From Thermoleophilia bacterium (lineage in GTDB: Bacteria > Actinomycetota > Thermoleophilia > UBA2241): a stretch of 60,003 bases of DNA. The stretch is from assembly GCA_016933475.1 (NCBI GenBank), contig JAFGAW010000009.1, positions 1-60,003 on the forward strand. Reading direction: 5' to 3'. Shown here in pieces: positions 4,227-53,106 of the stretch. The notes under the pieces were generated by a model. That model worked only from the letters and a program-made list of their open reading frames with translations, made no database searches and had not been told where the DNA came from. Position 1 is the first letter of the stretch, and each line of letters opens with the position of its first letter. The position numbers and the translations under genes are program-made.

Positions 4227-4460
4227 TGTGCCTCCCCTCGCGGGTCTCGGCCCGCGGCCGGCGTGACGACTGCAGGGTCGGTCCCCCTGCGGGATGGTCG
4301 CGCCTCGGCGGCCGCCTGTCCAGTGGCAGTCTGCCCGCCGCCGCCGGTTCTCTCCCGCGAGCGGACCGGTGCCGGCGTGGACGGGGGCGTGCCGGCGGCC
4401 GCGCGTGAGGGCGAGACGGCCGGGGGAGGCGACCCGCCCCGTCGGCTGCGTCGCGGCGCG

Positions 4461-4814
4461 TCAACTCAGGATGCGCTCGAGGGTCCAGCGCCTGGCGAGG
4501 CGGTCGTAGCAGAGCTCGAGCACGCGACCCTCGGCCTCGACGCGCCAGTACGAGCGGCTGACCCGGGTCGCCTCGCTCCACCACCCCGTCTCGACGACCC
4601 AGCGCTCAAGCACGCGGCGCACGCGCCAGCGGCGGCGGCGCCAGCCGAAGGACGAGGGCTGGCGCCGCCGCGCGTCCCAGGTGACGCCGATCGGCTCGGG
4701 GCCTCGACGGCCGGAGGGTCGCGGGGTGGGCGCCTGCTCCTCGGGGGTCGGTCGGCCGGTCACGTGCTGCTCCGTGGTCGCTGGATGGTCGTGCGGGGAT
4801 CTCGAGTGTGGCAC
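4461..4814 (-). CDS. Hypothetical small protein, candidate SOS-regulon member
   Basis: 117-aa ORF whose first possible start (GTG 4814) lies inside a LexA box. An alternative GTG is at 4763. The C-terminal half is Trp/Arg-rich and looks non-random (WRVRRVLERWVVETGWWSEATRVSRSYWRVEAEGRVLELCYDRLARRWTLERI). I am not sure of any family. Confidence 0.5.
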   Translation of the reverse strand: MPHSRSPHDHPATTEQHVTGRPTPEEQAPTPRPSGRRGPEPIGVTWDARRRQPSSFGWRRRRWRVRRVLERWVVETGWWSEATRVSRSYWRVEAEGRVLELCYDRLARRWTLERILS

Positions 4815-4832
4815 GAACGTATGTTCGTGTCA
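4809..4832. promoter_or_regulatory. LexA (SOS) box
   Basis: TGGCACGAACGTATGTTCGTGTCA is 22/24 identical to the box at 1515-1538. Core CGAAC-GTAT-GTTCG at 4814-4827. Confidence 0.75.
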
Positions 4833-4996
4833 ACGTCGGGCGGAACGACCGCGGAGGCGTGTCTGTCGCCTCAACGGAACAGCCGTGTGCGTGCGCCGCT
4901 TGTCTCGGACGAGCGACCGTGACTATGATTGTCGCATCTTAGAGCGACGCTGGGGGGCGACGCTCGCGCATCCGCGCCTGCGGAAAGGGGAGAGCT

Positions 4997-6859
4997 ATGG
5001 GAAGCACGAGTCACCGTCGCACGCCGATCCTCATCGTCCTGCTGCTTCTGGCGGCACTCGCGGTCTCGCTGGTCGCGGGTCTGGCGAGCGCCGCCGCCGA
5101 AGAGACCGCGTCGCCGGCGGCAGGCGACGAGAAGGTCATCTACCGTGTCGGCTGGCCCGACGAGCCGGACAGCATGAACCCGTACATCGGGTACACGGCG
5201 GAGGCGTTCGAGATCTGGTACCTCAACTACGATGCGCTCATCGGCTTTGACGCGGCCACGCTCAGCCCGATGAAGGGTGAGGAGTCGACGGGCCTCGCTA
5301 CCGACTGGACGACGAGTGAGGACGGTCTCACCTGGACCTTCACCCTGCGCCAGGACGCGGTGTTCAGCGACGGCGAACCCCTGACGGCCGATGACGTCGC
5401 CTTCTCGTACAACTACGTCATCGAGAACGACCTCGAGAACTGGACCGCGTACACGAACCTCATCGAGCAGGCGACCGTGATCGACGACTACACGGTCGAG
5501 TTCACCTGCTCGAAGCCCAAGCCCGACATGATCCGCCACTACGTGCCGATCGTGCCCGAGCACGTCTGGTCCAAGATCAGCCCCGAAGACGCGGCCGAGG
5601 GCTTCCAGAACCTCCCGACGATCGTCGGCTCCGGACCGTTCATCTGCACCGAGTGGAAGAAGAACTCGTACGTGAAGATGGAGGCCAACCCGAACTGGCG
5701 GGGCCCGGCGCCGAAGATCGACGAGATCTACTTCGTCTACTTCACGAACACCGATACGATGGTGCAGGACCTCAAGTCCGGCAACATCGACGGCGCCGCC
5801 GCCCTCGGGGCGGGTCAAATGGCGCAGTTGGAGAACGAGCCGGGCATCACCGCCGAGGCGATCTCCGTCGACGGCTTCAACGAGCTTGGCTTCAACTGCT
5901 ACGACAGCGACGACAGCAAGGCTCACCCCGCCTGCCGGGACTGGAGGTTCAGGCAGGCGCTCGCCTGGGCCGTCGACCTGCAGAAGGGCGTCGACCTCGT
6001 GTGGCAGGGGTACTCGCCGCCGGGCACGACGATCATCCCGCCCAACTACTACAAGGACCCGGACTGGCATTGGGAGCCCCCTGACGACGTCAGGTACACC
6101 TACGACCCCGAGAAGGCCAAGCAGCTGCTCGACGAGGCCGGGTATCTCGACTCGGACGGCGACGGGGTCCGCGAGTACGACGGGAAGCCGATCAAGCTCA
6201 GCCTGATCGCGCGCACGGAGTCGAACGAGAGCCAGCAGTGGGCGAAGCTCTTCGCCGGCTGGTTCAAGGACGTCGGCGTCGAGATCAAGATCGAAGTGAT
6301 GGACGAAGGCGCCCTCATGGACCGCATGTACAACTACGAGGGCGACACGTTCGCACCCGACTTCGAGCTCTTCCTCTGGGGCTGGTACCTCGACTTCGAC
6401 CCCGGCTCCATGTTGAGCTATATGACCGCGGACCAGATCGAGAACTGGAGCGACTGCAACTGGTCCGACCCCGAGTACGAGGAGCTCTACCTCCTCCAGG
6501 CTGAGGAGCTCGACACGGAGACGCGCCTCGGGTACATCCACCGCATGCAGGAGATCCTGTACGAGCAGTGCCCGTACATCGTGACCGACTACGGCCCCGA
6601 CTTCGAAGCGTGGAACACCGACAAGTGGGAGGGCTACATCCACATCCCCGAGCCGAGCGGCAACGTGCTGCTCCCGCCTTTCGGCAACGGCTGCGGCTAC
6701 ATGAACTTCTTGAGCATCCAGCCGAAGACGGCCGACGCGGCGGTCGACGAGGGCGGCAACACGGCTCTCTGGATCGCGCTCGCCGTGGGCGCGGTGATCG
6801 TGGCCCTCATCATCGTCTTCGTGCTCCGCGCGCGTAAGCCGCAGGCGGTGGAGGAGTGA
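4997..6859 (+). CDS. ABC transporter substrate-binding protein, family 5 (peptide/nickel type), with an N-terminal signal and a C-terminal TM helix
   Basis: 620 aa. Signal-like N-terminus MGSTSHRRTPILIVLLLLAALAVSLVAGLASAAA, family-5 blocks (YRVGWPDEPDSMNPY, GSGPF...W, YDPEKAKQLLDEAGY) and a C-terminus NTALWIALAVGAVIVALIIVFVLRARKPQ. RBS GGGGAGAG upstream. Confidence 0.9.
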   Translation: MGSTSHRRTPILIVLLLLAALAVSLVAGLASAAAEETASPAAGDEKVIYRVGWPDEPDSMNPYIGYTAEAFEIWYLNYDALIGFDAATLSPMKGEESTGLATDWTTSEDGLTWTFTLRQDAVFSDGEPLTADDVAFSYNYVIENDLENWTAYTNLIEQATVIDDYTVEFTCSKPKPDMIRHYVPIVPEHVWSKISPEDAAEGFQNLPTIVGSGPFICTEWKKNSYVKMEANPNWRGPAPKIDEIYFVYFTNTDTMVQDLKSGNIDGAAALGAGQMAQLENEPGITAEAISVDGFNELGFNCYDSDDSKAHPACRDWRFRQALAWAVDLQKGVDLVWQGYSPPGTTIIPPNYYKDPDWHWEPPDDVRYTYDPEKAKQLLDEAGYLDSDGDGVREYDGKPIKLSLIARTESNESQQWAKLFAGWFKDVGVEIKIEVMDEGALMDRMYNYEGDTFAPDFELFLWGWYLDFDPGSMLSYMTADQIENWSDCNWSDPEYEELYLLQAEELDTETRLGYIHRMQEILYEQCPYIVTDYGPDFEAWNTDKWEGYIHIPEPSGNVLLPPFGNGCGYMNFLSIQPKTADAAVDEGGNTALWIALAVGAVIVALIIVFVLRARKPQAVEE

Positions 6860-7187: not shown

Positions 7188-9365
7188 CTACCGGGTCCCT
7201 GCCGCAGCCTGCGCGGCCCCCGACGCCGTCAGGCCCTCGACGGGCGCGGCGGAGTCGCCGCCGGCGCCGCCGGCGGCGCTCGAACCGCCGGTTTCGGCCT
7301 CGTCGGCCGGCGCGACCGCCCGGCGTACGCGGTCGACGAGTGCCGCGGCGAGCGCCGGGCGCGCCGCGCCGTCGAGGGCCCGCCAGGCCGTGCGGGCGTC
7401 GCCGCGGCCGAGATCGAGGACGCCGACGGCGGCGCGGTGCCGCTGCAGCCAGCCGTGCACGAGAAGGATCTCGTCGATACGTGTGCTGGGGAGCGGCGGC
7501 GCCGGCGGCGCGGCGGCCGCCAATTCGGCGAGGAAGTCGAGCGCCGCCGTGTGGTCGAACCCGGCGACGCGCACCTCGCGCTCGACGACGACCGCGCCGC
7601 CCCGTACCCCCCAGAGTCGCGCCCGACCTCGCGTGCGCGCGGGGTAGACGAGGACCGCCTCTTCGCGGACGGCGGCCGTGAGGCGCCTGATGGAGCGCAG
7701 GGCGCGCTCGGCCAGCTCGCGCTGCTCCTGCACGTGCTGGGCCTGCTCGAAGGCGAGCAGCTCGACGAGGTGCGCCTGACGCGCGACGAGGCGCGCGTCG
7801 AGGTCGGCGCCGTCGCCGTGCAGGACGCGGCGCACCTGCGACACCGCCTCGTCGTACTCCCCGTTCAGCTCGCGGCGGCAGGGGGCGAGGCAAGCGCCGG
7901 TGCCGGCGCGCGGGCAGGGGTGGTCGCCGTGACGTCCGCGTCTGCCGGTGCGCGCGCGGGCGCTCGCGCTCCGCGCCCCGCTCGAGCCGTCGCTCCGGGC
8001 CAGGCTCGCGCCGCCGTCCGCTCCGTCTCCCACCCGGCCACCCGCGCCGTCTCCCACCCGGTCACCCGCGCCGTCTCCCGCGCCGGCAGTACTTGCTCTG
8101 CGGCCCGAAGCCGGCAGCCGCACGCAGGTGCGCAGCGGGTAGGCGCTCGTGAGGCAGTCGACGAAGGCGCGTGCCAGGCTCGCCTTGCGGAACGGGCCGG
8201 CGTAGAGCCCGCCGTCGTCGCGCAGGTTGGGGGTGGCGTAGAGCCTTGGGTACTCCTCGCTCGTGAGCTTGGCGTAGTGGTAGGCGGGCACCCGCGTGCC
8301 GTGCTGGTTGTAAAGCGGGCGGTGGCGGGCGATGAGGCGCTGCTCGAGCAGCAGGGCGCCGAACTCGGAGCCCGTCTCGACGACGTCGATACGCTCGAGC
8401 AGCTCGAGCGCCTGCCGCGCCCCGTAGGCCTGCCGCTGCAGGAAGTGGTCGCGGGTGCGCCGGCGCAGGTTCTCGGCCTTACCGATGTAGAGGGCGTGCC
8501 CCGCCTTGTCGCGCATGACGTACACGCCGGGCCGTGTCGGCAGGCCCTCCGTGAGGGCGATCTTGTGGTAGTTGCGCCGCGATCCTGGCTCGCAGTAGCG
8601 GGCGACCTCCTCGAGGGTGGTCATGCCCTGCTCCTCGAGCCACGAGAGGAAGAGGAGGAGCAGCTCGGCGGTCGCCTGGGCGTCCCTGAGGGCCCGGTGC
8701 CCGGGCTTGACCGCCGTGTCGAAGCGCTCGGCGAGCGCGGCCAGCGAGCAGCGCTGCTGGGGGCAGAGCTTGCGCGCCAGGCGCAGCGTGTCGAGGACGG
8801 GCCGCTGGAAGGACTGGCGGCAGAGCCGCCCGAGCTCGTAGTCGAGGAAGCCGAGGTCGAAGCGCGCGTTGTGGGCGACGAGCACGGTGCCCTCGGCGAA
8901 CTCGACGAAGCGCGGGAGGACGGTCTCGACCGGCGGCGCGCCGGCCACGGTGCCGTCGTCGATGCCGGTCAGGCGGGTGATCATCGCGGGGATGTGCACG
9001 CGCGGGTCGACCAGCGACGAGAACGTCGCCGTCTGCGCGCCGCCCTCGACCCGCACGGCCCCGACCTCGGTGATCTTGGCGAGACCCGGGGTGCCGCCCG
9101 TGGTCTCGAGGTCGACCACGGTGAAGACGACGTCGCTGAGGTCGCGACGAGTGGCGCGCCAGGCCGCAAGGCCGAGGTGGACGTCGCTCTCCCAGACGAA
9201 GCGCTCGTCATTACGCACGATGTCGTCGACGAGCGCGTGCACGAGCGCGGGGGAACAGCCGGCGACGGGGAAGAGGTGCGGCCAGACTTCGCGGTAATCG
9301 AGGGCTTCGCCGGCCTGCTCGAGCAGAGCGAAGAGCTCATCGACGGTCGTGAAGGCGAGCTGCAC
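7188..9365 (-). CDS. DEDDh 3'-5' exonuclease (DnaQ/epsilon-like) fused to a GIY-YIG (UvrC/Cho-like) nuclease domain
   Basis: FTVVDLETTGG...AHNARFDLGFL...GHRALRDAQA (Exo I-III), then GVYVMRDKAGHALYIGKAENLRRRTRDHF...LLEQRLIARHRPLYN (GIY-YIG). 725 aa. Stop is TAG. Confidence 0.85.
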   Translation of the reverse strand: MQLAFTTVDELFALLEQAGEALDYREVWPHLFPVAGCSPALVHALVDDIVRNDERFVWESDVHLGLAAWRATRRDLSDVVFTVVDLETTGGTPGLAKITEVGAVRVEGGAQTATFSSLVDPRVHIPAMITRLTGIDDGTVAGAPPVETVLPRFVEFAEGTVLVAHNARFDLGFLDYELGRLCRQSFQRPVLDTLRLARKLCPQQRCSLAALAERFDTAVKPGHRALRDAQATAELLLLFLSWLEEQGMTTLEEVARYCEPGSRRNYHKIALTEGLPTRPGVYVMRDKAGHALYIGKAENLRRRTRDHFLQRQAYGARQALELLERIDVVETGSEFGALLLEQRLIARHRPLYNQHGTRVPAYHYAKLTSEEYPRLYATPNLRDDGGLYAGPFRKASLARAFVDCLTSAYPLRTCVRLPASGRRASTAGAGDGAGDRVGDGAGGRVGDGADGGASLARSDGSSGARSASARARTGRRGRHGDHPCPRAGTGACLAPCRRELNGEYDEAVSQVRRVLHGDGADLDARLVARQAHLVELLAFEQAQHVQEQRELAERALRSIRRLTAAVREEAVLVYPARTRGRARLWGVRGGAVVVEREVRVAGFDHTAALDFLAELAAAAPPAPPLPSTRIDEILLVHGWLQRHRAAVGVLDLGRGDARTAWRALDGAARPALAAALVDRVRRAVAPADEAETGGSSAAGGAGGDSAAPVEGLTASGAAQAAAGTR
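8013..8077. repeat. In-frame 24-nt tandem repeat (about 2.7 units) inside the exonuclease gene
   Basis: CCGTCTCCCACCCGG(C/T)CACCCGCG occurs twice plus a partial unit. It encodes the G/D/R-rich linker GAGDGAGDRVGDGAGGRVGDGADGG. Confidence 0.8.
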
Positions 9366-9405
9366 GACGTCATGGTACAGGGAGCGCCCGACGGATGCAC
9401 GGCAC

Positions 9406-9462
9406 CGCCGCGGTCCGGCTGCGCCGCCGCGGTCCGGCTGCGCCGCCGCGGTCCGGCGCCGC
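9406..9462. repeat. 19-nt tandem repeat, 3 units, upstream of the exonuclease gene
   Basis: CCGCCGCGGTCCGGCTGCG occurs twice perfectly, then CCGCCGCGGTCCGGCGCCG. Confidence 0.8.
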
Positions 9463-9783
9463 CGCCGTACCGCGGCCGGCCTGTGAGTCTCGGATCCGTT
9501 GCCCGGCCCGTCCAGGTGTCGTCCGTCCGCAAGGTGTGACCGGCTGGCCGGTCTCGCCGCCGCCGCCCGGCTGCGCCGCCGCCCGTCGTCACCGGGGTGA
9601 CCGGTTCGTCACTCTCGTGCGGGATCTCCGGCTGCGGCAGACTGCCGGTGCGCGCTGCGACGGCGGCTCTCCCCCGGCGGCTCCCGTCGCAGCACGAGGG
9701 CGGGAGGTGGGGTCGCGGGGCATCGACACGCGACGAGGGGCGGTCGCCCGCGCCGCGAGCGGCGCCGGCGGCGAGAGTCGCGC

Positions 9784-9907
9784 GGTCGGGGGCCGGCTGC
9801 TGACTCCCGGGGGGCCGGCCGCCGAGGCCCGGGGCGGGCTGTCGAGGTCGGGGGCCGGCCGCCGACGTCAGGGGCCGGCCGTCGAGGCTAGGCGCCGGCC
9901 CGTCGCA
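9784..9907. repeat. Degenerate ~20-nt tandem array (about 6 units). The last unit is the 3' end plus stop codon of the 9888..10334 gene.
   Basis: Units: GTCGGGGGCCGGCTGCTGAC / TCCCGGGGGGCCGGCCGCCGAG / GCCCGGGGCGGGCTGTCGAG / GTCGGGGGCCGGCCGCCGAC / GTCAGGGGCCGGCCGTCGAG / GCTAGGCGCCGGCCCGTCGCAG. Confidence 0.7.
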
Positions 9908-10334
9908 GTGGAGCGACGGCCAGCGCGGCGAGGGCTCCCGGCAGCAGGAAGAGGGCGAAGAAGAGCAGGAGGCCCGGCCCCCAGACGAAGTCGCCGGCTC
10001 TCATCACCAGCAGCACGGCCAGCGCGGCGAGGTTCGCCGCCACGGCGACGACGGCGCCGGCGAGCGGCAGGCGCCCACTGCCGGCGGTACCCCAGGCGGT
10101 GAAGGCACCGGCCGGCGCAACGAAGGCGTAGAGCGCGACGAGGGCGACGCCCGGCACGCTCCAGACCGCCGGCGAGCCCGGCCCCTGGCCGCCGCCGAAC
10201 GAGGCGGCGAGGTAGGCGACGAGCGGCGAGAGGGCGAGGGCGACGATGCCGGCGGCCAGCGCCAGCCGGGCCCCGGTGCGCTGTGGCCCCGCGGCCGGTG
10301 CGTCGTCTCTCCTCTTCTCCACTCTCGGCGCCAT
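9888..10334 (-). CDS. Hypothetical integral membrane protein
   Basis: 148 aa with four hydrophobic segments (LALAAGIVALALSPLVAYLAA..., VALVALYAFVAPAGAF..., LAGAVVAVAANLAALAVLLV..., LLLFFALFLLPGALAALAV). No family recognised. Stop is TAG. Confidence 0.45.
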   Translation of the reverse strand: MAPRVEKRRDDAPAAGPQRTGARLALAAGIVALALSPLVAYLAASFGGGQGPGSPAVWSVPGVALVALYAFVAPAGAFTAWGTAGSGRLPLAGAVVAVAANLAALAVLLVMRAGDFVWGPGLLLFFALFLLPGALAALAVAPLRRAGA

Positions 10335-10521
10335 GGCGCGCCGATGCTACCACCCCGGCAGACCGGCCGTCGGCCGCCCGGGCGGTGCGCGCCGCAGCGC
10401 AGCCCGGACGCGCCTCGCGGCGCGGTGGGGGCTGGCTGTGGCGCGCGCCGACGCGTTCGCCTCCCCGGGTGCGGTACGCGGGCGGCCGCCGCCTGGCGAG
10501 GCCCCGGCCGCGCGGGCCTCG

Positions 10522-10549
10522 TTACAGGCGTGTCGGCGAGGGGTAGAGT
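10522..10549 (+). promoter_or_regulatory. Candidate promoter of hsp20-lon
   Basis: TTACAG, 16 nt, TAGAGT. The -10 is embedded in GGGGTAGAGT, the same decamer found upstream of asp23 (36951-36960). Confidence 0.3.
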
Positions 10550-10624
10550 CTGCGGCACAGCAACCAGGAGAGCGCCCGCGGCGGGCAGCGTGCGTCCGCG
10601 GGGCGGTGGTCAAGGAGTCCTCCC

Positions 10625-11055
10625 GTGAGCAAAGAGAAGATGCAGAGCGAGGTACTGCGCGCCTTCAACGACTCGTGTGTCGTCAGCAGTCGCTCGCAGT
10701 ACCACGGCCGCGGGTTCAAACCCGCCGCCGACGCCTACTTCGAGGAGGAGACGCGCGAGATCGTCGTGCGTTTCGAGCTGCCCGGGATGGAGCGCGCCGA
10801 CATCGAGCTCTACATCGACCGTCGCGAGCTCGTGGTGCGCGGCGAGCGCACGTTCCCGACGGCCGGCGGGCGCGTCTACCAGCAGGTCGAGATGGACTAC
10901 GGTCCCTTCGAGCGCCACGTGCGCCTGATGGTCGACGTCGACCCCGAGAGCAGCAGCGCCACCTACGAGGCCGGCATCCTCGAGGTGCGCCTCGCGCTCG
11001 TCGAGCGCGAGGGCGCGCGGCGCATCCAGATCACCTCGACCGACGAGGAGCCGGC

Positions 11056-11059: not shown

Positions 11060-13818
<2,759 letters not shown>

Positions 13819-13903
13819 GCCGAGGCGTCGCGGCCCCGATCGCCGCGTGCGCACTCCCGCCGCGCTTGCGCCCCCTGCGCCCGGCGAAGGAAGATGGGGC
13901 GCC

Positions 13904-15394
13904 ATGCGCCCCAGCCTGACACTGCTCGACGACGCCGCCCTCGAGCGCCTGCGCGCGGCGACGCTCGACGTGCTCGGCAACACCGGCGTCGCCTTCAAGA
14001 GTGCCGCCGCCAGGGACGTGCTGCGCGACGCGGGGGCGCGGGTCGACAAGGAGTCGGGCGTCGTGTGGATCCCGCCGGAGCTCGTCGAGGCGACCGCCGC
14101 CGCGGCGCCCCGCGAGATCGTGCTCGGGGCCCGGGACGGCACCCACGACCTGCACCTCGACGGCAGCGCGACCTACCCTACGCACGACGGCATCGGCGCT
14201 TACGTGCTCGACCACCACACGTTCGAGCGCCGCCAGGCGACCCTCGACGACCTGCGCGCCGCCACTCTCGTGGGCGACGCCCTCGACGAGGTCGGCCTGA
14301 GCTGGTACGCGGTCAACCCGAGCGGCAGCGTCGAGCCCCGCCTCGAGGCCGTGCTCGCGACGCACACGCTGCTCACGGCGAGCGGCAAGCACGCCCAGGG
14401 CGCGGTGCTCGCGCCGCAGGACGTGCCCTATGTCATGGATCTGGCCGGGCTCGCCTCGCCGGGCGGGCGCTGGGACCCTGCCCACCCCGTGTTCTCGGCG
14501 ATCTACTGCCCGGTCTCGCCGCTGCAGCACGAGGCCGATGCCGTCGAGGCGGCGATGGCGCTGGTGCGGCAGCGCGTCCCGCTCAGCGTCTACGCGCTGC
14601 CCCTCGCCGGCGCCACCGCCCCGGCGACCCTCGCCGGCGCGATCGTGCAGACCAACGCCGAGGTGCTCTCCAGCGTCGTCCTCTTCCAGCTGCTCGAGCC
14701 CGGCTGCCCCCTGGTCTACGTCGCCAACGCCGCGCTCATGGACATGCACGCGGCGAGCTACGCGGCGGCGTCGCCGGAGAGCGTGCTCATGAACCTGGCC
14801 CTGGCCGAGCTCGGCCGTTCGTACGAGTTACCGATCCTCACCGTGGGCTTCTCGACCGACGCCTGGACGCCGGGATCCCGGCTCGGTGCCGAGTCCGCCC
14901 TGATGACGGCGACCGGGCTGCTCGCCGGGGCCGACATCCTCATCGGCATGGGGATGCTGAACTCGGCCAACGCCCTCTGCCTGCCCAAGCTGCTCCTCGA
15001 CGCCGAGCTCTGGGGCGCGTGCCGGCGCCTGGAGCGGGGCGTGGAGCTCGACGACGAGCACCTCATGCTCGACCTCATCCAGCGCGTGGGCCCGGGCGGC
15101 CATTACCTGTCGGCCAAGGAGACCTCGGCGACACTGCGCGCCGGTGAGCACTGGCGCCCCGACCTGTACCGGCGCGTCGCCTACGAGACCTGGCAGGCGG
15201 CGCGCCCGCCGGCGACGTCTCCCGTCGACCCGCTGGTGTCACCCGCGGCGAGCCCGCCCGACCCCGAGTGGGACGAGGCGGTCGAGCGCGTCGAGGCGCT
15301 CCTCGCCACGCACACCCCGCCGCCGCTGCCCGACGGGGCTCAGGCGGCCATGGCCGACGTCGTGGCCGCCGCCGAGCGTGAGCTGCCGGACTGA
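13904..15394 (+). CDS. MttB-superfamily methyltransferase, non-pyrrolysine paralog (quaternary-amine/glycine-betaine type candidate)
   Basis: MRPSLTLLDDAALERLRAATLDVLGNTGVAFKS...IYCPVSPLQHEADAVEAAMAL...LAGATAPATLAGAIVQTNAEVLS.... Colinear with the Pyl-containing mttB at 22595 and with the paralog at 24829. No internal TAG (ILTVGFSTDAW at the Pyl region). Confidence 0.85.
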   Translation: MRPSLTLLDDAALERLRAATLDVLGNTGVAFKSAAARDVLRDAGARVDKESGVVWIPPELVEATAAAAPREIVLGARDGTHDLHLDGSATYPTHDGIGAYVLDHHTFERRQATLDDLRAATLVGDALDEVGLSWYAVNPSGSVEPRLEAVLATHTLLTASGKHAQGAVLAPQDVPYVMDLAGLASPGGRWDPAHPVFSAIYCPVSPLQHEADAVEAAMALVRQRVPLSVYALPLAGATAPATLAGAIVQTNAEVLSSVVLFQLLEPGCPLVYVANAALMDMHAASYAAASPESVLMNLALAELGRSYELPILTVGFSTDAWTPGSRLGAESALMTATGLLAGADILIGMGMLNSANALCLPKLLLDAELWGACRRLERGVELDDEHLMLDLIQRVGPGGHYLSAKETSATLRAGEHWRPDLYRRVAYETWQAARPPATSPVDPLVSPAASPPDPEWDEAVERVEALLATHTPPPLPDGAQAAMADVVAAAERELPD

Positions 15395-18867: not shown

Positions 18868-18910
18868 GGCGTGCCGGCCGGCGTCAGGGACCGTCGCCGG
18901 CCGGCACGCC
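18868..18910. terminator. 16-bp inverted repeat enclosing the TetR stop codon
   Basis: GGCGTGCCGGCCGGCG (18868-18883), 11-nt loop containing TCA (the stop on the minus strand), CGCCGGCCGGCACGCC (18895-18910). Confidence 0.4.
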
Positions 18911-19549
18911 GGCTCCGTCGCGCGCCTGCTCGAGCGCGTGCCGGATCAGCCCGGCCCAGTACTGCAGCACGGGCTCGACGTCGAAGGTCTGGTCTGCGGC
19001 GTACTGCATGGCGAGTCCGTCGCAGACCGCGACCGTCAGCGCCGTCAGGAGGCGCAACCGCTCGCGCAGCTCGTCGTCGGCCTCGGGCTCGAGGGCGTAG
19101 ATGTCGAGCTCGCGGTACCAGTCGAAGAGCTCCGCCATGCGCGGCCACAGGCTGGGGTCGCGGATGAGGTTGGGAAAGAGGTCGAAGAACAACCGGTACT
19201 GGCGCAGGTTGGTGACCACGCGCAGATGCTGTGCGATGAGGATGTCGACGCGGTCGTGGTCGGGGCTCGCCTTCGAGAGCTCGCGCAGCAGGCGGATGTT
19301 CTCGTCGTGCACGACCGAGTCGGCGAGCGCCCCGACGAGCCCCGCCTTGTTGCCGAAGTGGTAGCGGATCGAGGCCTTGTTCTCGCCGGCCTCGGCGGCG
19401 ATCGCCTCGAGGGTGAGGCCTTTGAAGCCCTCGCGGCCGAGCACGCGCCGCGCGGCGGCGAGGATGCGCCGCGCGGTCGGCGACAGCTCGGCCGCCGCGT
19501 CGTGCGTGACCAGGCTTGCGCCCCGGACGCGGATCCCGTTGTCGGTCAT
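18884..19549 (-). CDS. TetR/AcrR family transcriptional regulator, divergent from the methylamine island
   Basis: RRILAAARRVLGREGFKGLTLEAIAAEAGENKASIRYHFGNKAGLVGAL (TetR HTH). I chose the ATG at 19549 (MTDNG...). The ORF extends to 19630. Confidence 0.85.
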   Translation of the reverse strand: MTDNGIRVRGASLVTHDAAAELSPTARRILAAARRVLGREGFKGLTLEAIAAEAGENKASIRYHFGNKAGLVGALADSVVHDENIRLLRELSKASPDHDRVDILIAQHLRVVTNLRQYRLFFDLFPNLIRDPSLWPRMAELFDWYRELDIYALEPEADDELRERLRLLTALTVAVCDGLAMQYAADQTFDVEPVLQYWAGLIRHALEQARDGAGVPAGDGP

Positions 19550-19640
19550 CGGCGGTGCTCTCCGTCGGTCGTGGCCCCTGAGCGGTCGCGCCGAAGCGGG
19601 CGGCCATTCTCCCTGTGCAGCCTGCCCCATCGTCGCGCTG

Positions 19641-21151: not shown

Positions 21152-22576
21152 TTGGACGACAGGATACTGACCCGCATGGGTGACGGGTCGCTCGTCGAGA
21201 CGACGCGCGCCCAGCTGCGCGCCGACATCGAAGACGGCACCCAGCAGGCGGTGCGCCGCGCAAAGGTGCCGCCGCTCGAGCAGGGCGAGCTCGACCACCT
21301 CGAGGACATCTTCTGCTCGAACGCGCGCTTCACCGGCGTCGACCTGGGCGACGAGGTCATCTTGAGCTACGACGGCTCGGGCAACGCCGACCTCGGCTCG
21401 CGCATGACCGAGATGCTCGCCTACCAGACGCACCAGGGCGCCGACATGCTCGAGCTCTGGCACATCGACTACTCGTACAAGGCGATCAAGACGATCCTCT
21501 CGTTCGAGGCTCATGAGATGAAGATGAGCCAGCTCAACCTGACGGTCCCCATGCAGTACGGGGCCATGCCCGACCTGGGCCGGTACTCGAAGCCCGACGG
21601 GCCCATTCCCAACTGGTCCGAGCTCATGCCCCTGGGCCGCATCGAGGAGGCGCGGGCGGCGCAGCTCGAGGCCGGCGAGATGGCCACGCACGACATGCTC
21701 TTCGTCGCCGACGGCATGGTCGAGGCGGGCACCGACGGCCTCGACTTCGACACCGCCGGCGCGGCCGGCGACGGCGACTTCCTCGCCACCCTCAACGCGG
21801 TCGAGAAGATCCGCGCGAAGCACCCGCACGTCGGCATCGAGATCGGCATGGCGAGCGAGTTCGTGCTCGGCATGCACGGCGAGCTCGAGTACAGGGGCGA
21901 GCGGCTTGCCGGCATGTGGCCGCACCAGCAGGTCAAGGCGGTGGCGGCGGCCGGCGGTACGATCTTCGGGCCGGCCGTCAACGTCAACACGCGCAAGTCG
22001 GTAGCCTGGAACGTGAGCCGCGCCTGCACCTTGGTGAAGCGCTGCTGCGAGGAGTCGACGATCCCCGTGCACATGAACGTCGGCATGGGCGTCGGCGGCG
22101 TGCCGATGACCGCGTACCCGCCGGTCGACGCCGTCTCGCGGGTCTCGAAGGCGCTCGTCGACGTGACCCGCATGGACGGCTTGTAGGTCGGCGTGGGCGA
22201 CCCTGTGGGCATGTCGCTGGCCCACACGCTCGCCTCGGGCATGGGCGGGATGCGCGCCGCCGGAGACCTGGTGGCGCGCATGCAGATGACCCGGGGGATG
22301 CGGCTCAGTGAGGCCAAGGAGTACGTCGCCGGGAGGCTCGGCGTCTCGACCCTCGACCTCGTCGACCCCGTCGTCATGCACGATGTGCGCGCAGAGCTGG
22401 GCCTCGGGCGCATCACCGTGCAGGAGCTGACCTACGCCGACCAGCCCTACGCGATCGAGGCCAAGTTCCGGATCAGCGAGGTGCTGGACATCCCGATCAA
22501 CAGCGTCGAGCGCTTCGCCGCGCGCGCCGGGCTGGGGGCGCCGCGCGTGTCCGCCGCCGGCGGCGCGGCGGGCTGA
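21152..22576 (+). CDS. mtbB: Dimethylamine:corrinoid methyltransferase with an in-frame amber (pyrrolysine) codon
   Basis: ORFs 21152..22186 and 22193..22576 are in the same frame, separated by TAG plus GTC GGC. Joined length is 474 aa. Blocks as I remember MtbB: RMGDG, YGAMPDLGRY..PDGP, FDTAGAAGDGD, GMHGELEY.G..LAGMWPHQQ, MGMGVGGVPM, DGL-TAG-VGVGDPVGM..AH..ASGMGGMRAAGDLVARM, EAKEYVAGRLGV. TTG start. Confidence 0.9.
22184..22186 (+). other. In-frame UAG, predicted pyrrolysine codon of mtbB (codon 345)
   Basis: GGC TTG TAG GTC GGC. The flanking protein sequence is conserved on both sides. Confidence 0.85.
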
Positions 22577-22594
22577 GACCCCGGAGGTGCTTGA

Positions 22595-24064
22595 GTGAAA
22601 CGCAATCTGCACGCAGGACATCGCCGTAGCGGGGGGTTCAGCCTCAACGTGTTCACCGAGGCCGAGATGGACTCGATCCACCTCGCGACCCTCGAGGTGC
22701 TGGAGCGCACCGGTGTCTTCGTCGAGGCCGACGAGGCGATCGACATCTTCACCGACGCCGGCTGCCACGTGGACCGTGAGCGGCGCGTCGTCAAGATCCC
22801 GCCGCACCTGGTCGAAGACGCGATCCGCTCGGCGCCGAGCCGCTTCACGCTCTGCGGGCGCGACCCGAAGAACGACTTCGTCATGGAGCCGGGTCGCGTC
22901 GCCTTCACCAACTTCAGCGAGGGCATCCGCCTGATCGACCCGTTCACCGGCGAGTACCGCGACCCGACCAAGAAGGACATCGGGGACATCGCCCGGCTCA
23001 ACGATTACCTCAGCGAGATGGACACGCACGAGATCTCGGTCGGGGCCAGCGACGCGCCCGCCGAGACGATCTCCGTGCACAACAGCGAGCAGCAGCTCCT
23101 CAACACCACCAAGCCGATCGGTATCGGTCCGCTCTCGCGGATGGAGAGCATCGCCGTCTTCCGCATGTGCGCCGAGATCGTCGGCGGCGAGGACGCGCTG
23201 CGCGAACGCCCCATCGTCTACAACGGCGTCTGCCCGGTGAGCCCGCTCAAGCTGCCGCACGAAGTCACCGAGGTGATCATCGAGACGGCGCGCTGGGGTC
23301 TGCCCTGCAACGTGCTCTCGATGGCCATGGCGGGGGGCTCCTCACCGGTGACCCTGGCCGGCACGATGGTCACGCACAACGCCGAGGTCCTCGCCGGCAT
23401 CACGCTCTCGCAGCTTGCCGAGCGCGGCGTCCCGGTCATCTACGGCAGCTCGACCACGGCCATGGACCTCAAGCTCGCCGCCGCCAGCGTCGGTACGCCC
23501 GAGCTCGCCATGGTCAGCGCCGCCGTGGCGCAGATGGCGCGCCGCTACCTGCTGCCGAGCTTCGTGGCGGGGTTGTAGGCTGACTCCAAGGTCGGTGACG
23601 CGCAGACCGGTCACGAGAAGACCCTCACCGGGATACTGGCAGCGTTGGCAGGGGCCAACCTGATCTACGGGGCGGGGATGATCGAATCGGGCGTCACCTT
23701 CGACTGCGGGCAGTTCGTCATGGACAACGAGTTCGCGCGCATGATCAAGCACAGCGTCATGGGCATCCCGGTCGACGACGAGACCCTGGCGGTGGAGGAC
23801 ATCGCCACGGTCGGTCCGTTCGGGGATTTCCTCAGCCTGGATGCGACGCTGAAGCACATGCGCACGCTCAGCCAGCCCGCACACCTCGACCGCCGCGTGC
23901 GCGAAGACTGGCAAGACCGCGGCGCCACCGACCTGTATGCTCGCTGTACCGCCGAGGCGCGGCAGATCATCGAGGAGTACCGGCCCGAGCCGCTGCCCGA
24001 CGACGTGGCGCAGCGTATCCACGACATCGTGGAGGAGACCGACCGGGCGGCGGGTGTAGCCTGA
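22595..24064 (+). CDS. mttB: Trimethylamine:corrinoid methyltransferase with an in-frame amber (pyrrolysine) codon
   Basis: ORFs 22595..23578 and 23645..24064 are in the same frame. The 22 codons between them are all sense (ADSKVGDAQTGHEKTLTGILAA). Joined length is 489 aa. Blocks: CPVSPLKL, NVLSMAMAGGSSPVTLAGTMVTHNAEVLAG, YGSSTTAMDLK, SFVAGL-TAG-ADSKVGDAQTGHEKT, IYGAGMIESG, GIPVDDETLAVE. GTG start after GGAGG. Confidence 0.9.
23576..23578 (+). other. In-frame UAG, predicted pyrrolysine codon of mttB (codon 328)
   Basis: GGG TTG TAG GCT GAC. This is the same TTG-TAG-G context as in mtbB. Confidence 0.85.
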
Positions 24065-24193: not shown

Positions 24194-24829
24194 GTGAGCG
24201 ACCAGTACGGACCACTGAAGCAGGCTGTGATCGACGGCAACGCCGACCTGACGAACGCGCTGGTCCAGGCGGCCCTCGCCCAGGGGGCCGCTGCGAAGGA
24301 GATCCTCGAGGGCGCCCTTCTGCCCGGCATGGCGGTCGTCGGCGAGCGCATGAAGAGCGGCGAGTGCTTCATCCCCGAGGTGCTGCTCTCGGCGCGCGTG
24401 ATGCAGGGCGCCCTGGACGCATTGAGGCCCCTGCTCGCCGAGGGCGAGGGCGGCGGCCTCGGCACCGTGGTCATCGGCACGGTCGAGGGCGACTTGCACG
24501 ACATCGGCAAGAACCTCGTCGGCATGATGCTCTCGGGTGCCGGATTCGAGGTCATCAACCTCGGCACGGGCATCACCCCGGCGCAGTTCGTCGCCGCCGC
24601 CGAGGAGCACGGGGCGACGATCGTCGGCATGAGCGCCCTGCTCACGACCACGATCCCGCGCATGAAGGAGACCATCGACGCCCTCGCCGCCGCAGGGCTC
24701 AGGGACAAGGTCAAGGTCATGATCGGCGGCGCCCCCGTCACCCAGGCCTTCGCCGACGAGATCGGCGCCGACGGCTACGGCGCCAACGCCGGCGCCGCCG
24801 TCGACCGTGCCAAGTCCCTGGTGAAGTGA
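24194..24829 (+). CDS. Methyltransferase cognate corrinoid protein (B12-binding, MttC/MtbC type)
   Basis: N-terminal helical cap, then the B12-binding domain with VVIGTVEGDLHDIGKNLV (DxHxxG), MSALLTTT, VKVMIGGAP. GTG start after AAGGAG. Confidence 0.9.
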   Translation: MSDQYGPLKQAVIDGNADLTNALVQAALAQGAAAKEILEGALLPGMAVVGERMKSGECFIPEVLLSARVMQGALDALRPLLAEGEGGGLGTVVIGTVEGDLHDIGKNLVGMMLSGAGFEVINLGTGITPAQFVAAAEEHGATIVGMSALLTTTIPRMKETIDALAAAGLRDKVKVMIGGAPVTQAFADEIGADGYGANAGAAVDRAKSLVK

Positions 24830-26286
24830 TGCCGGAGGCCTCCGCCCCGGGGCGCCTGGCGCCCCGCGTCAGCATGCTCACCGACGACGCGTTCGTCTAT
24901 GTGCACGGGCAGACGCTCGAGCTGCTGGCGACCGTCGGCGTCCGTTTCGCAAGCGCCCGCGCCCGCGCGCTGCTGCGCGAGGCGGGCGCCCGCGTCGACG
25001 ACGACAGCATGGTGGTCCGCATCCCGGCCGAGCTCGTCGAGCGGGCCGTGGCCTCGGCGCCGCACGACGTGCTGCTCGCCGCCCGCGACGGTGAGCACGA
25101 CGCCCTGCTCGACCGCTCGCGCACCTTCGTGGGCCACGACGGCATGGGCGCCATGACGATGGACCACCGCACCGGCGAGCGCCGGCCGTCCACCGACCAG
25201 GACCTCTACGAGGCCTGCGTCGTCGCCGACGCCCTCGACGAGCTCGGCTTCTGCTGGTACGTGGCGACGCCCAACGACGCCGTGCCCGCCGTGCAGTCGC
25301 TGCAGGGCATCGTCACGATGCTTCGCGGCTCGGGCAAGCACGCCCAGGGCGACCTCAGCGACCCCCTCCTCGTGCCGTACGCGCTCGAGGCGGCGGCGGC
25401 GGCGAGCCCCGGCGGCGTGTGGGACCCGGCGAGGCCGGTCTTCTCGATCGTCTACTGCCCGGTCTCGCCGCTGCAGCACGACCCCGAGGCCCTCGACGCC
25501 GCTATGCTGCTCGCCGAGCACGGCGTGCCGATCGTCGTCTACAGCCTCGCCCTCGCGGGGGCGACGGCGCCGATCACCCTCGCCGGCACCATCGTGCAGA
25601 CCAACGCCGAGATCCTCAGCGGCCTCGTCGCCCTGCAGCTCGCGGCTCCCGGCAGCCCCTTCGTCTATGTCGGCAACTCGAGCATCCTCGACATGAAGAC
25701 CTCCACCTACGGCGCCTGCGGGCCCGAGGCGCTGCTCTTCAACCTCGCGCTGACCGAGATGGGGCACCGCTACGGCTTCCCCGTGCTCTCCGGCGGCCTG
25801 TCGAGCGACGCCAAGGAGCTCTGCATGCAGTCGGGGTACGAGGGCGGCACGATGGCGCTCCTCAGCACTCTCGCCCACGCCGACCTCTTCGTCGGCGTCG
25901 GCATGCTTGACTCGGCGCAATTCCTCTACCTGCCGAAGATGGTGCTCGACGCCGAGGTCGTCGCCCAGTGTGCCCACGTGGCGCGCGGCGTGCAGCTGGA
26001 CGACGAGAGCGTGATGCTCGAGGTGTCGGCGCGGATCGGCCCGGGCGGTCACTTCCTCGGTGCCCGCGAGACGCGGTCCTTCCTGCGCCGGGGAGAGCAC
26101 TACCAGCTCAAGGTGTTCCAGCGCGGCTCCTACGAGGCCTGGCGGGCACAGCCGGTCCCCGAGGCCGAGCGCGCGACGGCCGTGGTCGACGACATCCTCG
26201 CCACGCACCGGCCGCCGGCGTTGCCGGTGGGCGCCGAGGAGCGCATGGCCGCGGCCGTGGCCGCCGCCGCGGAGGGGCGCGGCTAG
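24829..26286 (+). CDS. MttB-superfamily methyltransferase, non-pyrrolysine paralog, translationally coupled to the corrinoid protein
   Basis: The ATG overlaps the corrinoid-gene TGA (ATGA). VYCPVSPLQHDPEALDAAMLL...LAGATAPITLAGTIVQTNAEILSG.... VLSGGLSSDAKE sits at the Pyl region, with no TAG. Stop is TAG. Confidence 0.85.
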   Translation: MPEASAPGRLAPRVSMLTDDAFVYVHGQTLELLATVGVRFASARARALLREAGARVDDDSMVVRIPAELVERAVASAPHDVLLAARDGEHDALLDRSRTFVGHDGMGAMTMDHRTGERRPSTDQDLYEACVVADALDELGFCWYVATPNDAVPAVQSLQGIVTMLRGSGKHAQGDLSDPLLVPYALEAAAAASPGGVWDPARPVFSIVYCPVSPLQHDPEALDAAMLLAEHGVPIVVYSLALAGATAPITLAGTIVQTNAEILSGLVALQLAAPGSPFVYVGNSSILDMKTSTYGACGPEALLFNLALTEMGHRYGFPVLSGGLSSDAKELCMQSGYEGGTMALLSTLAHADLFVGVGMLDSAQFLYLPKMVLDAEVVAQCAHVARGVQLDDESVMLEVSARIGPGGHFLGARETRSFLRRGEHYQLKVFQRGSYEAWRAQPVPEAERATAVVDDILATHRPPALPVGAEERMAAAVAAAAEGRG

Positions 26287-31518: not shown

Positions 31519-32763
31519 TCAGCGCTGGCGGCCGGCCCGCTCCTCGAGTGCGCGCAGCAGGCCGAAACACCCGGTGAGCATCATGTCGCCGTGCGGCGCC
31601 GCGAACTCGAAGGGGAGGGGGGAGCCCTCGAGCAGGGTGCGGCGGGGGCCGGTCGCGATCAGCGGCACCCCGTCGGGGACGGGCCCGTCGAGGACGGCGC
31701 CGTGCCCGCCGTCGTCGCGCACCTCGTCGTTCCCCAGGCCTCCGGCGAGGAAGCGCCGCAGACGCTCGACGAGGCCCGGGCCGTCGAGCCGGCGGGTGTG
31801 GTGTTCGAAGACTCCCGCGAGGCGCCCCTCTCGAGCCACGGCGCAGACCGTGTGCCCGTTGCCGACGTTGACCAGCACGGCGTCAGCGCGGCCCTCCGGC
31901 AGGGCGCCGTAGAGGGCCGCGGGCCCGGTGTCGGCGACGAGCAGGCGGGCGGGAGCCCCGCCCGCCTCCTCGTCGCCGGCACCCCCCGCGGCGAGCCGGC
32001 GGGCGGCCTCCAGAGCGGCTCGCAAGCGCGTGAGTTTCGCCGGTAGCCTGTCTTCGTCGTAGAAGAGCGCGCCCAGGGGCCGGCGTTCGGCGACCGCACG
32101 TGCCCAGAGGCCGAAACGGAAGACCCGGTTCGAGCCCCCGGGGCTGAACCCGTGGTCCTGCACGGCGACGGCCACGGCGTCGACCCCGGGCTCCACTTCC
32201 AGGCGGGCGAAGGCCGCGAGCAGGCTCTCGACGTCGAGGTCGCCCGTACGGACCTCGACGGCGCCGTCGCCCGCCGCGGCGAGCAGCGCGTCGACCTCTT
32301 CGTCGCTCACGACCTGCACCCCGAGGCGCCGGGCGCGCTCCGGGTCGTCGGCGAAGGTGAGCACGGCCTCCTCGGTCGCGACGAAGCCGGCGCCGGCGGC
32401 GAGGTGCCGCTTCATCGCCGCCGTCGACGCACCGCCGCCCATCACCGGCCCGCGCAGGACGACCGTCGCCCCGCGGGCCGTCGCCGCCGCGATGCGCCGC
32501 CCCACGACCTGCGTCGCCGCGGGTACGACGAGCTTGAAGGCGTTCTCGAGCGCTTCGCCGGGCTGTGTGAGAAGGATGTCGGTGGTGCCGGCGCCGACGT
32601 CGATGCACAGGGCGCGGCCGACTGTCGAGGAGCCTCGTCCGGCGACCGCGGGTGACGCAGCGACCCGACCGCTCGCGCCGGCCTGCCCGCCCGCGTCGGT
32701 CTCCCCGCCGGCACCGGCACGCCCGTTCGCGCCCGGCGCGGTCGTGCCGGCGCAGCAGGTCAC
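31519..32763 (-). CDS. DUF1786-like ASKHA-fold protein (function unknown)
   Basis: ALCIDVGAGTTDILL (phosphate-1-like motif)...LLVADTGPAALYGAL...VLVNVGNGHTVCAV.... I chose the GTG at 32763, which overlaps the upstream gene's TGA (GTGA). That leaves a Gly/Ala-rich 45-aa N-terminus. The longer ORF would overlap the GT2 gene. Confidence 0.5.
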   Translation of the reverse strand: MTCCAGTTAPGANGRAGAGGETDAGGQAGASGRVAASPAVAGRGSSTVGRALCIDVGAGTTDILLTQPGEALENAFKLVVPAATQVVGRRIAAATARGATVVLRGPVMGGGASTAAMKRHLAAGAGFVATEEAVLTFADDPERARRLGVQVVSDEEVDALLAAAGDGAVEVRTGDLDVESLLAAFARLEVEPGVDAVAVAVQDHGFSPGGSNRVFRFGLWARAVAERRPLGALFYDEDRLPAKLTRLRAALEAARRLAAGGAGDEEAGGAPARLLVADTGPAALYGALPEGRADAVLVNVGNGHTVCAVAREGRLAGVFEHHTRRLDGPGLVERLRRFLAGGLGNDEVRDDGGHGAVLDGPVPDGVPLIATGPRRTLLEGSPLPFEFAAPHGDMMLTGCFGLLRALEERAGRQR

Positions 32764-33506
32764 GCCGGGCGCCCCGGTGCGCGCCGCGCCGGGGCGCTGA
32801 AGCGGAGCTTCCAGACGCTCTTCATCGCCTCGACGACGATGTCGTTGGTCATCTTCGACTCGCCGACCTTGCGGTCGACGAAGACGATCGGCAGCTCGAC
32901 GACGCGGAAGCCAAGCTGGTGGACGCGGTAGGTGAGCTCGATCTGGAACCCGTACCCCCGCGCGTCGACGGCGTCGAGGTCGAGGGCCTCGAGCACCTCG
33001 CGGCGGAAGCACTTGTAGCCCCCGGTGAGATCATGGTAGGGGAGCCCGAGGATCGTCTGCGCGTACAGGCAGCCGCCGCGGCTGATCACGCGGCGCGGCA
33101 GCGTCCAGTTCTCGACCCCACCACCGCGCACGTAGCGCGAACCCAGGACGAGGTCGGCCCCACGCTCTATCAGGCGCAGGAAGTCGGGGATGTAGGAGGC
33201 GTCGTGCGAGAGGTCGGCGTCCATCTCGAAGACGCGCTCGGCCCCCATCGCGAGCGCGTGGCGGAAGCCGTCGATGTAGGCGCGCCCCAGGCCCTCCTTG
33301 CCGGGCCGGTGGAGCACGGAGACGTCGGGCAGCTGCGCGGCGAGCTCGTCGGCGAGCTCGCCGGTGCCGTCGGGCGAGTCGTCGTCGACGATCATGGTGT
33401 GCAGGGGGAGACCGTGGCCGTCGGCGACCTCGCGGATGCGGGCCAGCGCGTGGCGCAGGTTGGGCCGCTCGTTGTAGGTGGGGAGGACGATGACGTTCAC
33501 CTGCAC
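32760..33506 (-). CDS. GT2 polyprenol-phosphate mannosyltransferase (Dpm1/Ppm1-like)
   Basis: IVLPTYNERPNL, MIVDDDSPDGTGE, GKEGLGRAYIDGF, EMDADLSHD, GSRYVRGGG, GYKCFRREVLE, FQIELTY. Confidence 0.85.
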   Translation of the reverse strand: MQVNVIVLPTYNERPNLRHALARIREVADGHGLPLHTMIVDDDSPDGTGELADELAAQLPDVSVLHRPGKEGLGRAYIDGFRHALAMGAERVFEMDADLSHDASYIPDFLRLIERGADLVLGSRYVRGGGVENWTLPRRVISRGGCLYAQTILGLPYHDLTGGYKCFRREVLEALDLDAVDARGYGFQIELTYRVHQLGFRVVELPIVFVDRKVGESKMTNDIVVEAMKSVWKLRFSAPARRAPGRPA

Positions 33507-50830: not shown

Positions 50831-50839
50831 CCCCACCTC

Positions 50840-53105: not shown

Positions 53106-53106
53106 G

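Follow-up and report, generated by a model that had tools for sequence, protein, structure and literature searches.

In-frame UAG codons of mtbB and mttB in a Thermoleophilia contig are very probable pyrrolysine codons

Does a TAG codon that interrupts a methylamine methyltransferase gene in a high-GC bacterium encode pyrrolysine (Pyl), or does it end a truncated protein? The question is raised by a stretch of 60,003 nucleotides from a Thermoleophilia bacterium (assembly GCA_016933475.1, contig JAFGAW010000009.1, positions 1 to 60,003), hereafter the window, in which two adjacent genes, mtbB and mttB, had been proposed from inspection of the letters (the original prediction) to carry amber codons at the Pyl positions of their products. 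The analyses described here indicate that both in-frame UAGs are very probably functional Pyl codons. The features concerned are the following.

21152..22576, + strand: mtbB, predicted dimethylamine:corrinoid methyltransferase (PF09505, 585 bits; TIGR02368, 445 against a cut-off of 369)
22184..22186, + strand: TAG of mtbB, codon 345, predicted Pyl codon (column conservation; positions 1-3 of PYLIS_2)
22595..24064, + strand: mttB, predicted trimethylamine:corrinoid methyltransferase (PF06253, 328 bits; TIGR02369, 692 against a cut-off of 525)
23576..23578, + strand: TAG of mttB, codon 328, predicted Pyl codon (X334 of PDB 7XCL; positions 1-3 of PYLIS_3)

Gene identity and in-frame TAG codons

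Translation of the window, which has a GC content of 71.3%, showed that each gene occupies one reading frame with TAG as its single internal stop, the frames at 21152-22576 and 22595-24064 holding 474 and 489 sense codons, respectively. The program-made list of open reading frames (ORFs) splits mtbB into 21152-22186 and 22193-22576, and mttB into 22595-23578 and 23645-24064, with 22 sense codons from the TAG to the next listed ORF. The split frames, the TAG coordinates, the lengths of the joined products and the local context TTG-TAG-G common to both TAGs are all as originally predicted. The gene identities proposed at the same time were also upheld, as both joined products exceed the NCBIfam equivalog cut-offs for Pyl-dependent enzymes (TIGR02368 and TIGR02369), and PF09505 (Dimeth_Pyl) covers profile positions 5-461 of 463 in the joined mtbB product. 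Among the MttB-superfamily genes of the window, the amber-bearing mttB is predicted to be the true trimethylamine enzyme, because its two TAG-free paralogues reach scores of only 344 and 373 bits with TIGR02369 and have Ser at the Pyl column.

Registration of the TAG codons on the pyrrolysine position

The window MttB was matched to Methanosarcina barkeri MttB (PDB 7XCL) with a score of 400 bits over residues 2-485, and its TAG (query position 328) aligned with X334, the Pyl residue of that protein. The TAG fell in the same column in 19 of the 20 MttB homologues fetched. A structure of MtbB was sought in the PDB and none was found; because there is no such entry, MtbB was registered using Rfam PYLIS_2 and 25 homologues, in place of a residue-by-residue alignment of the protein with the characterised M. 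barkeri MtbB1. In the MtbB alignment, all 26 fetched homologues, ranging from ~44% to 98% identity and including an archaeal mtbB that lies beside pylSBCD (L050), have the TAG in the same column (DGL-TAG-VG.GD).

Two pyrrolysine insertion sequence (PYLIS) elements were found with Rfam models that are curated to start at the Pyl UAG of known genes.

22184..22283, + strand: PYLIS_2 element (RF02509), including a hairpin at about 22248-22283
23576..23675, + strand: PYLIS_3 region (RF02510)

RF02509 (PYLIS_2, 'pyrrolysine insertion sequence mtbB') scored 75.1 bits against a gathering score of 36, and RF02510 (PYLIS_3, 'pyrrolysine insertion sequence mttB') 74.9 bits against 38, each over model positions 1-100 of 100. 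They are the sole Rfam matches in the whole window, and the leading UAG of each (positions 1-3) coincides with the TAG of the respective gene. The proposal that the ambers occupy Pyl positions was therefore borne out by X334 of 7XCL and by the PYLIS_2 and PYLIS_3 matches. Placement against a characterised enzyme was direct for MttB (TAG on Pyl334), and was achieved for MtbB through the Rfam model and homologues only.

Coding signal downstream of the TAG codons

Fourteen TAGs end window ORFs that are supported by the GC content of third codon positions (GC3), and just the two TAGs of mtbB and mttB precede coding-like in-frame extensions. The GC content of second codon positions (GC2) in these extensions is 0.50 and 0.43, and their GC3 is 0.96 and 0.88. 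The extensions of the other 12 TAG-ended window genes look non-coding, yielding no further read-through candidates.

When the window was compared with five relatives, the ratio of non-synonymous to synonymous substitution rates (dN/dS) was indistinguishable on the two sides of the TAGs (0.07-0.26 after, 0.05-0.41 before), the downstream values being 0.07-0.26 for mtbB and 0.07-0.24 for mttB. With the closest relatives, dN/dS downstream of the TAGs was 0.07-0.23, at dS up to 0.19, and no extra stops or frameshifts were found in this part. The TAG codon itself is invariant among the compared loci, whereas adjacent third positions vary. More than 100 MttB protein clusters (77-93% identity) are exactly 327 aa long, from which it follows that gene callers end these proteins at the same TAG. 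From the low dN/dS after its TAG and the high conservation of the 22 codons before the next possible start, we predict that the downstream part of mttB is translated in the same frame, giving functional full-length MttB. The purifying selection downstream of the TAGs and the conservation of the TAG column down to ~44% identity support the earlier argument against pseudogenes and two-piece proteins.

Host lineage

Relatives were sought with a query that joined PylSc to the window MtbB, in a scan covering a single genome of each species. The closest MtbB loci (L007-L010) are from uncultured Thermoleophilia metagenome-assembled genomes (MAGs), with a protein identity of 96-98%, in line with the actinobacterial host originally proposed. 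At the nucleotide level, those of the closest loci that span at least 9 kb are 87-90% identical to the window, and the contig L007, of 2.6 kb, is 96.5% identical. We conclude on these grounds that the window comes from an uncultured bacterium of high GC content in the class Thermoleophilia (Actinomycetota). Both TAGs recur in L001 and L002, two contigs of Mb scale in which the genes are ordered as in the window, namely sdhCDAB, TetR, solute-binding protein, mtbB, mttB, corrinoid protein, EamA, Macro, OCD, DUF1786, GT2, NrdR and RNR; in L001, the corrinoid gene is also followed by a TAG-free MttB paralogue.

The pyrrolysine cassette in Thermoleophilia

The search of the lineage for PylSc was started from Desulfitobacterium hafniense PylSc, checked against PDB 3DSQ. 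This protein was rejected as a route to actinobacterial PylS, as its best 120 matches were all from Firmicutes. Actinobacterial PylSc was reached after all representatives at 50% identity had been searched exhaustively and one of them, the Arg/Ala-rich P0242, had been used as a new query. More than 120 PylSc clusters were obtained in this way, and the few that have source names are labelled as Thermoleophilia or Actinobacteria MAGs.

The proteins of the Thermoleophilia cassette score above the respective cut-offs (in brackets): PylSc 313 (178), PylSn 120 (51), PylD 206 (150) and PylB 424 (348). PylC is also present, and is intact, with 416 aa, in short-read contigs. In 25 bacterial loci, ARAGORN detected a tRNA-Pyl with anticodon CUA directly downstream of pylD. 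The cassette occupies one slot in ~40 loci, in the order gltX, tldD/pmbA, amidase, pylSc, pylSn, Germane-domain gene, pylT, pylD, pylC and pylB, and lies in relatives between gltX-tldD-amidase and leu genes; the constancy of the slot points to vertical inheritance in this lineage. PylSc and a TAG-bearing mtbB are found together under one whole-genome shotgun prefix in ten MAGs, in three of these on the same contig, and in L004 the two are ~300 bp apart. A further link, between L001, with its syntenic mtbB-mttB, and the cassette locus L006 through the shared accession ERZ25039462, was rejected as proof of a common genome: the sister accession ERZ25039459 has two different PylSc contigs, and such accessions are therefore metagenome-level and the link is weak.

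From the continuing purifying selection on mtbB and mttB and from the lineage-wide cassette, we infer that the window's own genome contains the pyl cassette. The original prediction had placed the decoding machinery elsewhere in the genome; it is indeed outside the window and is found in many Thermoleophilia MAGs, and for this particular genome a copy is presumed.

In almost every one of the ~40 pyl loci, pylSc is preceded by the amidase gene, which encodes an N-acetylmuramoyl-L-alanine amidase (PG_binding_1 and Amidase_3 domains), and pylSn, pylT and pylDCB lie on the opposite strand. In the five gene-called loci inspected (L004, L005, L006, L061 and L062; ~8917-10014 and 10001-10861), the last 4-14 bases of this gene are shared with the start of pylSc. 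In L061 (ERZ25039459 contig_76141), genes for a reverse transcriptase (RVT_1) and a DUF4268 protein, with a stretch that seems to be masked or low in GC, take the place of the expected pylD, pylC and pylB at 12472-15390, where tblastn finds only a remnant of PylC; this cassette may have been disrupted by a mobile element. In many long-read MAG loci, pylB, pylC, pylD or a second mtbB is broken into at least two frames (L005/L006, 13192-14464; L016, L032, L056, L060, L044, L057 and L059). The same cassette is intact in the short-read contigs L062-L065, and homopolymer frameshift errors, not pseudogenes, are the probable cause of the breaks.

Counter-evidence and alternative explanations

Several observations weigh against Pyl decoding in the window's genome. 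ARAGORN found no tRNA in the 60 kb, and tblastn with Thermoleophilia queries found no PylSc, PylSn, PylB, PylC or PylD there, confirming the absence of pylT and pylSBCD already remarked on. The MtbB proteins of the PylSc-linked MAGs are only 39-65% identical to that of the window. No PylSc match was found in the four closest MAGs (L007-L010), for which only three exact peptide patterns were searched. Moreover, TAG ends 12 of the 46 window genes (26%; for example at 2155-2157, in the region of 9363-9365 and at 26284-26286), with a median of 72 codons to the next in-frame stop and hence no near back-up; constitutive suppression of UAG would be costly for this reason.

The lack of pyl genes in the window, the missing PylSc match in the pattern-limited scan and the apparent disruption of the related cassette in L061, with its reverse-transcriptase gene at the pylDCB site, would all be expected if the cassette had been lost from this genome or its immediate clade, leaving mtbB and mttB as truncated, inactive fragments on the way to becoming pseudogenes. 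Such orphaned genes should not, however, retain the low dN/dS seen downstream of the TAGs against the closest relatives at measurable dS, with reading frames free of additional stops and frameshifts, and this selection argues against any loss of the cassette older than the divergence of the window from those relatives. The absent PylSc match is uninformative because the three exact patterns are too narrow: one of them, NWGIVDPW, misses the known Thermoleophilia PylSc P0242, which reads NWGIVEPW. We therefore regard orphaned genes as an improbable explanation.

A GTG at 22193, two codons after the mtbB TAG, might suggest that the N- and C-terminal parts are translated separately and assemble into two-piece enzymes without pyrrolysine. 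In mttB, however, the next possible start lies 22 codons beyond the TAG, and these codons (ADSKVGDAQTGHEKT) are among the most conserved of the family. The TAG column of mttB is moreover that of the catalytic Pyl334, and the TAG codon is constant next to third positions that vary, which makes two-piece enzymes highly improbable.

About equally remote is a decoding of UAG as one of the canonical amino acids, by a near-cognate tRNA or another suppressor. It would be in keeping with the sense codons found at this column in close MttB homologues (CTC for Leu in L003; Trp and Ala in P0029 and P0040), but the TAG itself is kept by selection (in 26/26 MtbB and 19/20 MttB homologues), the lineage that has the TAG-bearing genes also has a complete Pyl cassette, and no suppressor tRNA was seen in the window. 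An origin of both stops in sequencing or assembly error can be practically discounted, since the same TAGs are present in independent short- and long-read assemblies from many samples, even though long-read relatives do hold frameshifts such as the split pylC of L005/L006.

Proposed route of UAG decoding

UAG is not reassigned in the window, since about one gene in four terminates with it. The base following the TAG is C at 8 of the 12 ordinary stops and G at both Pyl TAGs, a sample too small for a context rule.

In the mechanism that we propose for functional Pyl codons, a pyl cassette elsewhere on the chromosome would supply both the tRNA and its amino acid: pyrrolysine would be made by PylB, PylC and PylD, and tRNA-Pyl(CUA) would be charged by a split synthetase composed of PylSn and PylSc. 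The charged tRNA would compete with release factor 1 in reading the single UAG of each mRNA, giving full-length enzymes of 474 and 489 aa with Pyl, as predicted from sequence, at both UAGs. MtbB and MttB would then move a methyl group from dimethylamine and trimethylamine, their presumed substrates, onto the Co(I) of the adjacent corrinoid protein, and the methyl group would probably be passed onward to tetrahydrofolate (THF). Because UAG also ends 12 of the 46 genes, with the next in-frame stop at a median of 72 codons, suppression would have to be limited, by regulation or by context, and the adjacent TetR gene is a candidate regulator.

RNA structure near the UAG codons

The RNA following the mtbB UAG folds better than its shuffles (z = -2.75). 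Helix 2 forms the hairpin at ~22248-22283. In 25 homologues it is 86% paired, and four of its pairs have changed on both sides; the hairpin overlaps a conserved peptide, so that coding constraint confounds the structural signal. It is the helix already present in Rfam PYLIS_2. No stable structure was found after the mttB UAG by folding against shuffles (z = -0.36), and because this region lacks one, the PYLIS_3 match is essentially conserved coding sequence. These results agree with published work, in which a conserved structure was described for mtbB and not for mttB (PMC3639795). The mtbB hairpin may be a candidate contributor to selective decoding.

The methylamine operon

mtbB and mttB would belong to a methylamine-utilisation operon comprising a TetR regulator, a solute-binding protein, mtbB, mttB, a corrinoid protein and a non-Pyl MttB paralogue. 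The further genes of this operon, together with a second paralogue located upstream of sdhCDAB, are listed below.

18884..19630, - strand: TetR-family regulator (Pfam TetR_N, 50 bits), divergent and upstream of the operon, in the same position in L001/L002
19819..21051, + strand: solute-binding protein, PotD/PotF-like, first gene of the cluster (Pfam SBP_bac_8, 85 bits)
24194..24829, + strand: corrinoid (B12-binding) protein, MtbC/MttC-like (Pfam B12-binding and B12-binding_2)
24829..26286, + strand: TAG-free MttB-superfamily paralogue (PF06253, 248 bits; TIGR02369, 373, below 525)
13847..15394, + strand: TAG-free MttB-superfamily paralogue upstream of sdhCDAB (PF06253, 236 bits; TIGR02369, 344, below 525)

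The TetR gene is a candidate substrate-responsive regulator of the operon. The solute-binding protein scored 180 bits with the PotD-like NCBIfam model, below the cut-off, and its gene is kept in L001/L002. A cognate corrinoid protein is encoded alongside the window's methyltransferase 1 (MT1) genes; its NCBIfam scores with the MtgC, MtbC and pyl_corrinoid models (187-213 bits) are all below the cut-offs, and the position of its gene is kept in L001 and L002.

The paralogues at 24829..26286 and 13847..15394 are 30% and 29% identical to the window MttB, respectively, and both have Ser at the Pyl column. Both are likely to be methyltransferases for quaternary amines such as glycine betaine, and the first, within the operon, is probably a quaternary-amine methyltransferase. 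The start of the gene at 24829..26286 overlaps the stop of the corrinoid gene by one base (TGATG).

Neither a methyltransferase 2 (MT2; methylcorrinoid:THF or coenzyme M) nor a RamA-type activase was recognised among the window ORFs scanned; both may be encoded elsewhere in the genome. The product of 31519-33012 (- strand) is a DUF1786 protein, with the annotation 'putative pyruvate formate-lyase activating enzyme' and a PF08735 score of 214 bits. It matches no NCBIfam model, and in L001 and L002, too, its gene follows the operon at a distance of a few kb. That this protein could act as an ATP-dependent corrinoid activase in place of RamA is speculation.

A cluster on the minus strand (49392-57654) contains the following genes.

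49392-50258, - strand: HdrB-like CCG protein
50255-50836, - strand: HdrC-like 4Fe-4S protein
50840-52255, - strand: MetF
51781-52464, - strand: protein with the MetF C-terminal domain DUF5981, read as MetV
52461-53105, - strand: MvhD/FlpD
53107-57654, - strand: HdrA-like flavoprotein, 1515 aa

We take this cluster to encode a methylene-THF reductase complex of the acetogen type. The complex would fit the oxidation of corrinoid-derived methyl groups delivered to THF.

Comparison with known systems

The window MttB is collinear with M. barkeri MttB (Pyl334; PDB 7XCL, 7XCM and 7XCN), with ~47% identity and the UAG in the identical column; the flanking motif VAG-x-O-xD[SA]K...D.Q.GHEKT is kept, and the cognate corrinoid gene is adjacent. 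In contrast to the M. barkeri system, the host is a bacterium of 71% GC, the operon also includes mtbB, TetR and a solute-binding protein, and the methyl acceptor would be THF instead of coenzyme M. The window MtbB resembles Methanosarcina MtbB in its full-length match above the equivalog cut-off, in the UAG at PYLIS_2 position 1 and in the retained downstream hairpin, and differs in its Ala/Gly-rich C-terminal tail of ~17 aa.

Like D. hafniense, Acetohalobium arabaticum and Bilophila wadsworthia, the Thermoleophilia relatives have a split PylSn/PylSc, pylB, pylC, pylD and tRNA-Pyl(CUA). In these split-synthetase bacteria UAG remains a normal stop elsewhere in the genome, as it does elsewhere in the window. 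Thermoleophilia PylSc is ~50% identical to that of D. hafniense, and the Thermoleophilia genomes have a GC content of 65-73%. The gene arrangement differs from that of D. hafniense (pylT-pylSc-pylBCD-pylSn): in Thermoleophilia, pylSc stands alone on one strand, overlapping the end of the amidase gene, and the opposite strand carries pylB-pylC-pylD-pylT and pylSn, the slot being a fixed one among housekeeping genes.

The Pyl trait has been reported in the phylum, in Actinobacteria of soil. Guo et al. (2022, PMC9630628) counted pyrrolysyl-tRNA synthetase (PylRS) in 81 bacterial genomes, including two Actinobacteria. Ellenbogen et al. (2023, PMC10805028) described the expression of Pyl-encoding mttB and mtbB in Actinobacteriota MAGs from Stordalen Mire, where Pyl status was inferred from amber truncation. 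The phylum, the two genes and the amber-truncation inference are thus the same as here; the terms pylS and pylT were not found in the passages searched of that paper. A MAG from the Stordalen fen (L028, fen_672) is among the PylSc loci of the present survey. NCBI already names a 'pyrrolysine--tRNA(Pyl) ligase large subunit [Thermoleophilia bacterium]'. Given these publications and this NCBI name, the novelty implied by the original prediction was overstated. The genome of the window is a different one, unlisted in the searched passages of PMC10805028 and PMC9630628, which also contain no description of the pyl cassette organisation, pylT or the breadth of the trait in Thermoleophilia; a full-text literature search for pyrrolysine with Thermoleophilia or Actinomycetota likewise returned no description of the cassette or its breadth in the class.

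Implications

The Pyl trait in Actinobacteriota was already known, and the window adds a genuine further case. As the trait had been reported in the phylum, current understanding is not overturned. The breadth and vertical inheritance of the trait in Thermoleophilia may be under-appreciated, since ~40 loci have the cassette at one fixed chromosomal position and the PylSc clusters number more than 120, compared with the 'two Actinobacteria' counted in 2022. A broader reading is put forward tentatively and is on balance doubtful: Thermoleophilia might constitute a large, vertically inherited and largely undescribed Pyl-decoding clade of soil and peat, in whose genomes, of ~70% GC, UAG still serves at roughly one in four ordinary stops. 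Decoding would then be site-selective or tightly regulated, and methyl groups would feed the acetogen-type MetFV-HdrABC-MvhD module of the window. If so, the TetR regulator and the conserved mtbB hairpin would be examples of possible control.

Gene callers fragment both enzymes, into 344 + 127 aa for mtbB and 327 + 139 aa for mttB, and hundreds of database entries are fragmented likewise. Recognising the Pyl codons corrects this annotation, and the organism can probably demethylate trimethylamine and dimethylamine. For ecology, the window would add to the evidence of competition for methylamines between methylotrophic methanogens and the Actinomycetota of soil and peat. For the genetic code, Thermoleophilia would offer high-GC PylRS/tRNA-Pyl pairs in an unusual gene arrangement, and a case in which UAG is a frequent stop and a sense codon alike.

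Variation among related loci

Some MttB homologues with 54-58% identity to that of the window have a sense residue at the Pyl column (P0017, P0029, P0040, P0076 and P0105; L003). The residue is Trp in P0029 and Ala in P0040, and the flanking motif (DSK..DAQ.GHEKT) is fully kept in such homologues. The MttB gene at 10001-11467 of L003 (ERZ25039459 contig_8402) has CTC (Leu) at this column and adjoins two TAG-bearing copies. Mistranslation of TAG by an annotation pipeline was considered as the source of these residues and rejected, since the CTC codon of L003 is real. The sense-codon homologues are possibly Pyl-independent derivatives of true MttB.

Two TAG-bearing mtbB copies flank a single mttB in L041, L044, L047, L052 and L058 (second copy at ~4400-6100), and the two TAG-bearing mttB copies of L003 are identical. 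Because of these duplicates, of mtbB in several MAGs and of mttB in L003, the methylamine methyltransferase genes appear to have been amplified in parts of the Thermoleophilia lineage. Finally, pyl/mtbB loci were also found in MAGs labelled 'candidate division Zixibacteria' and 'Deltaproteobacteria' (L011, CAVTJJ01; L023; L043, JBLMXT01). They share synteny and an identity of 70-91% with Thermoleophilia loci, and the labels are likely to reflect mislabelled or contaminated bins.

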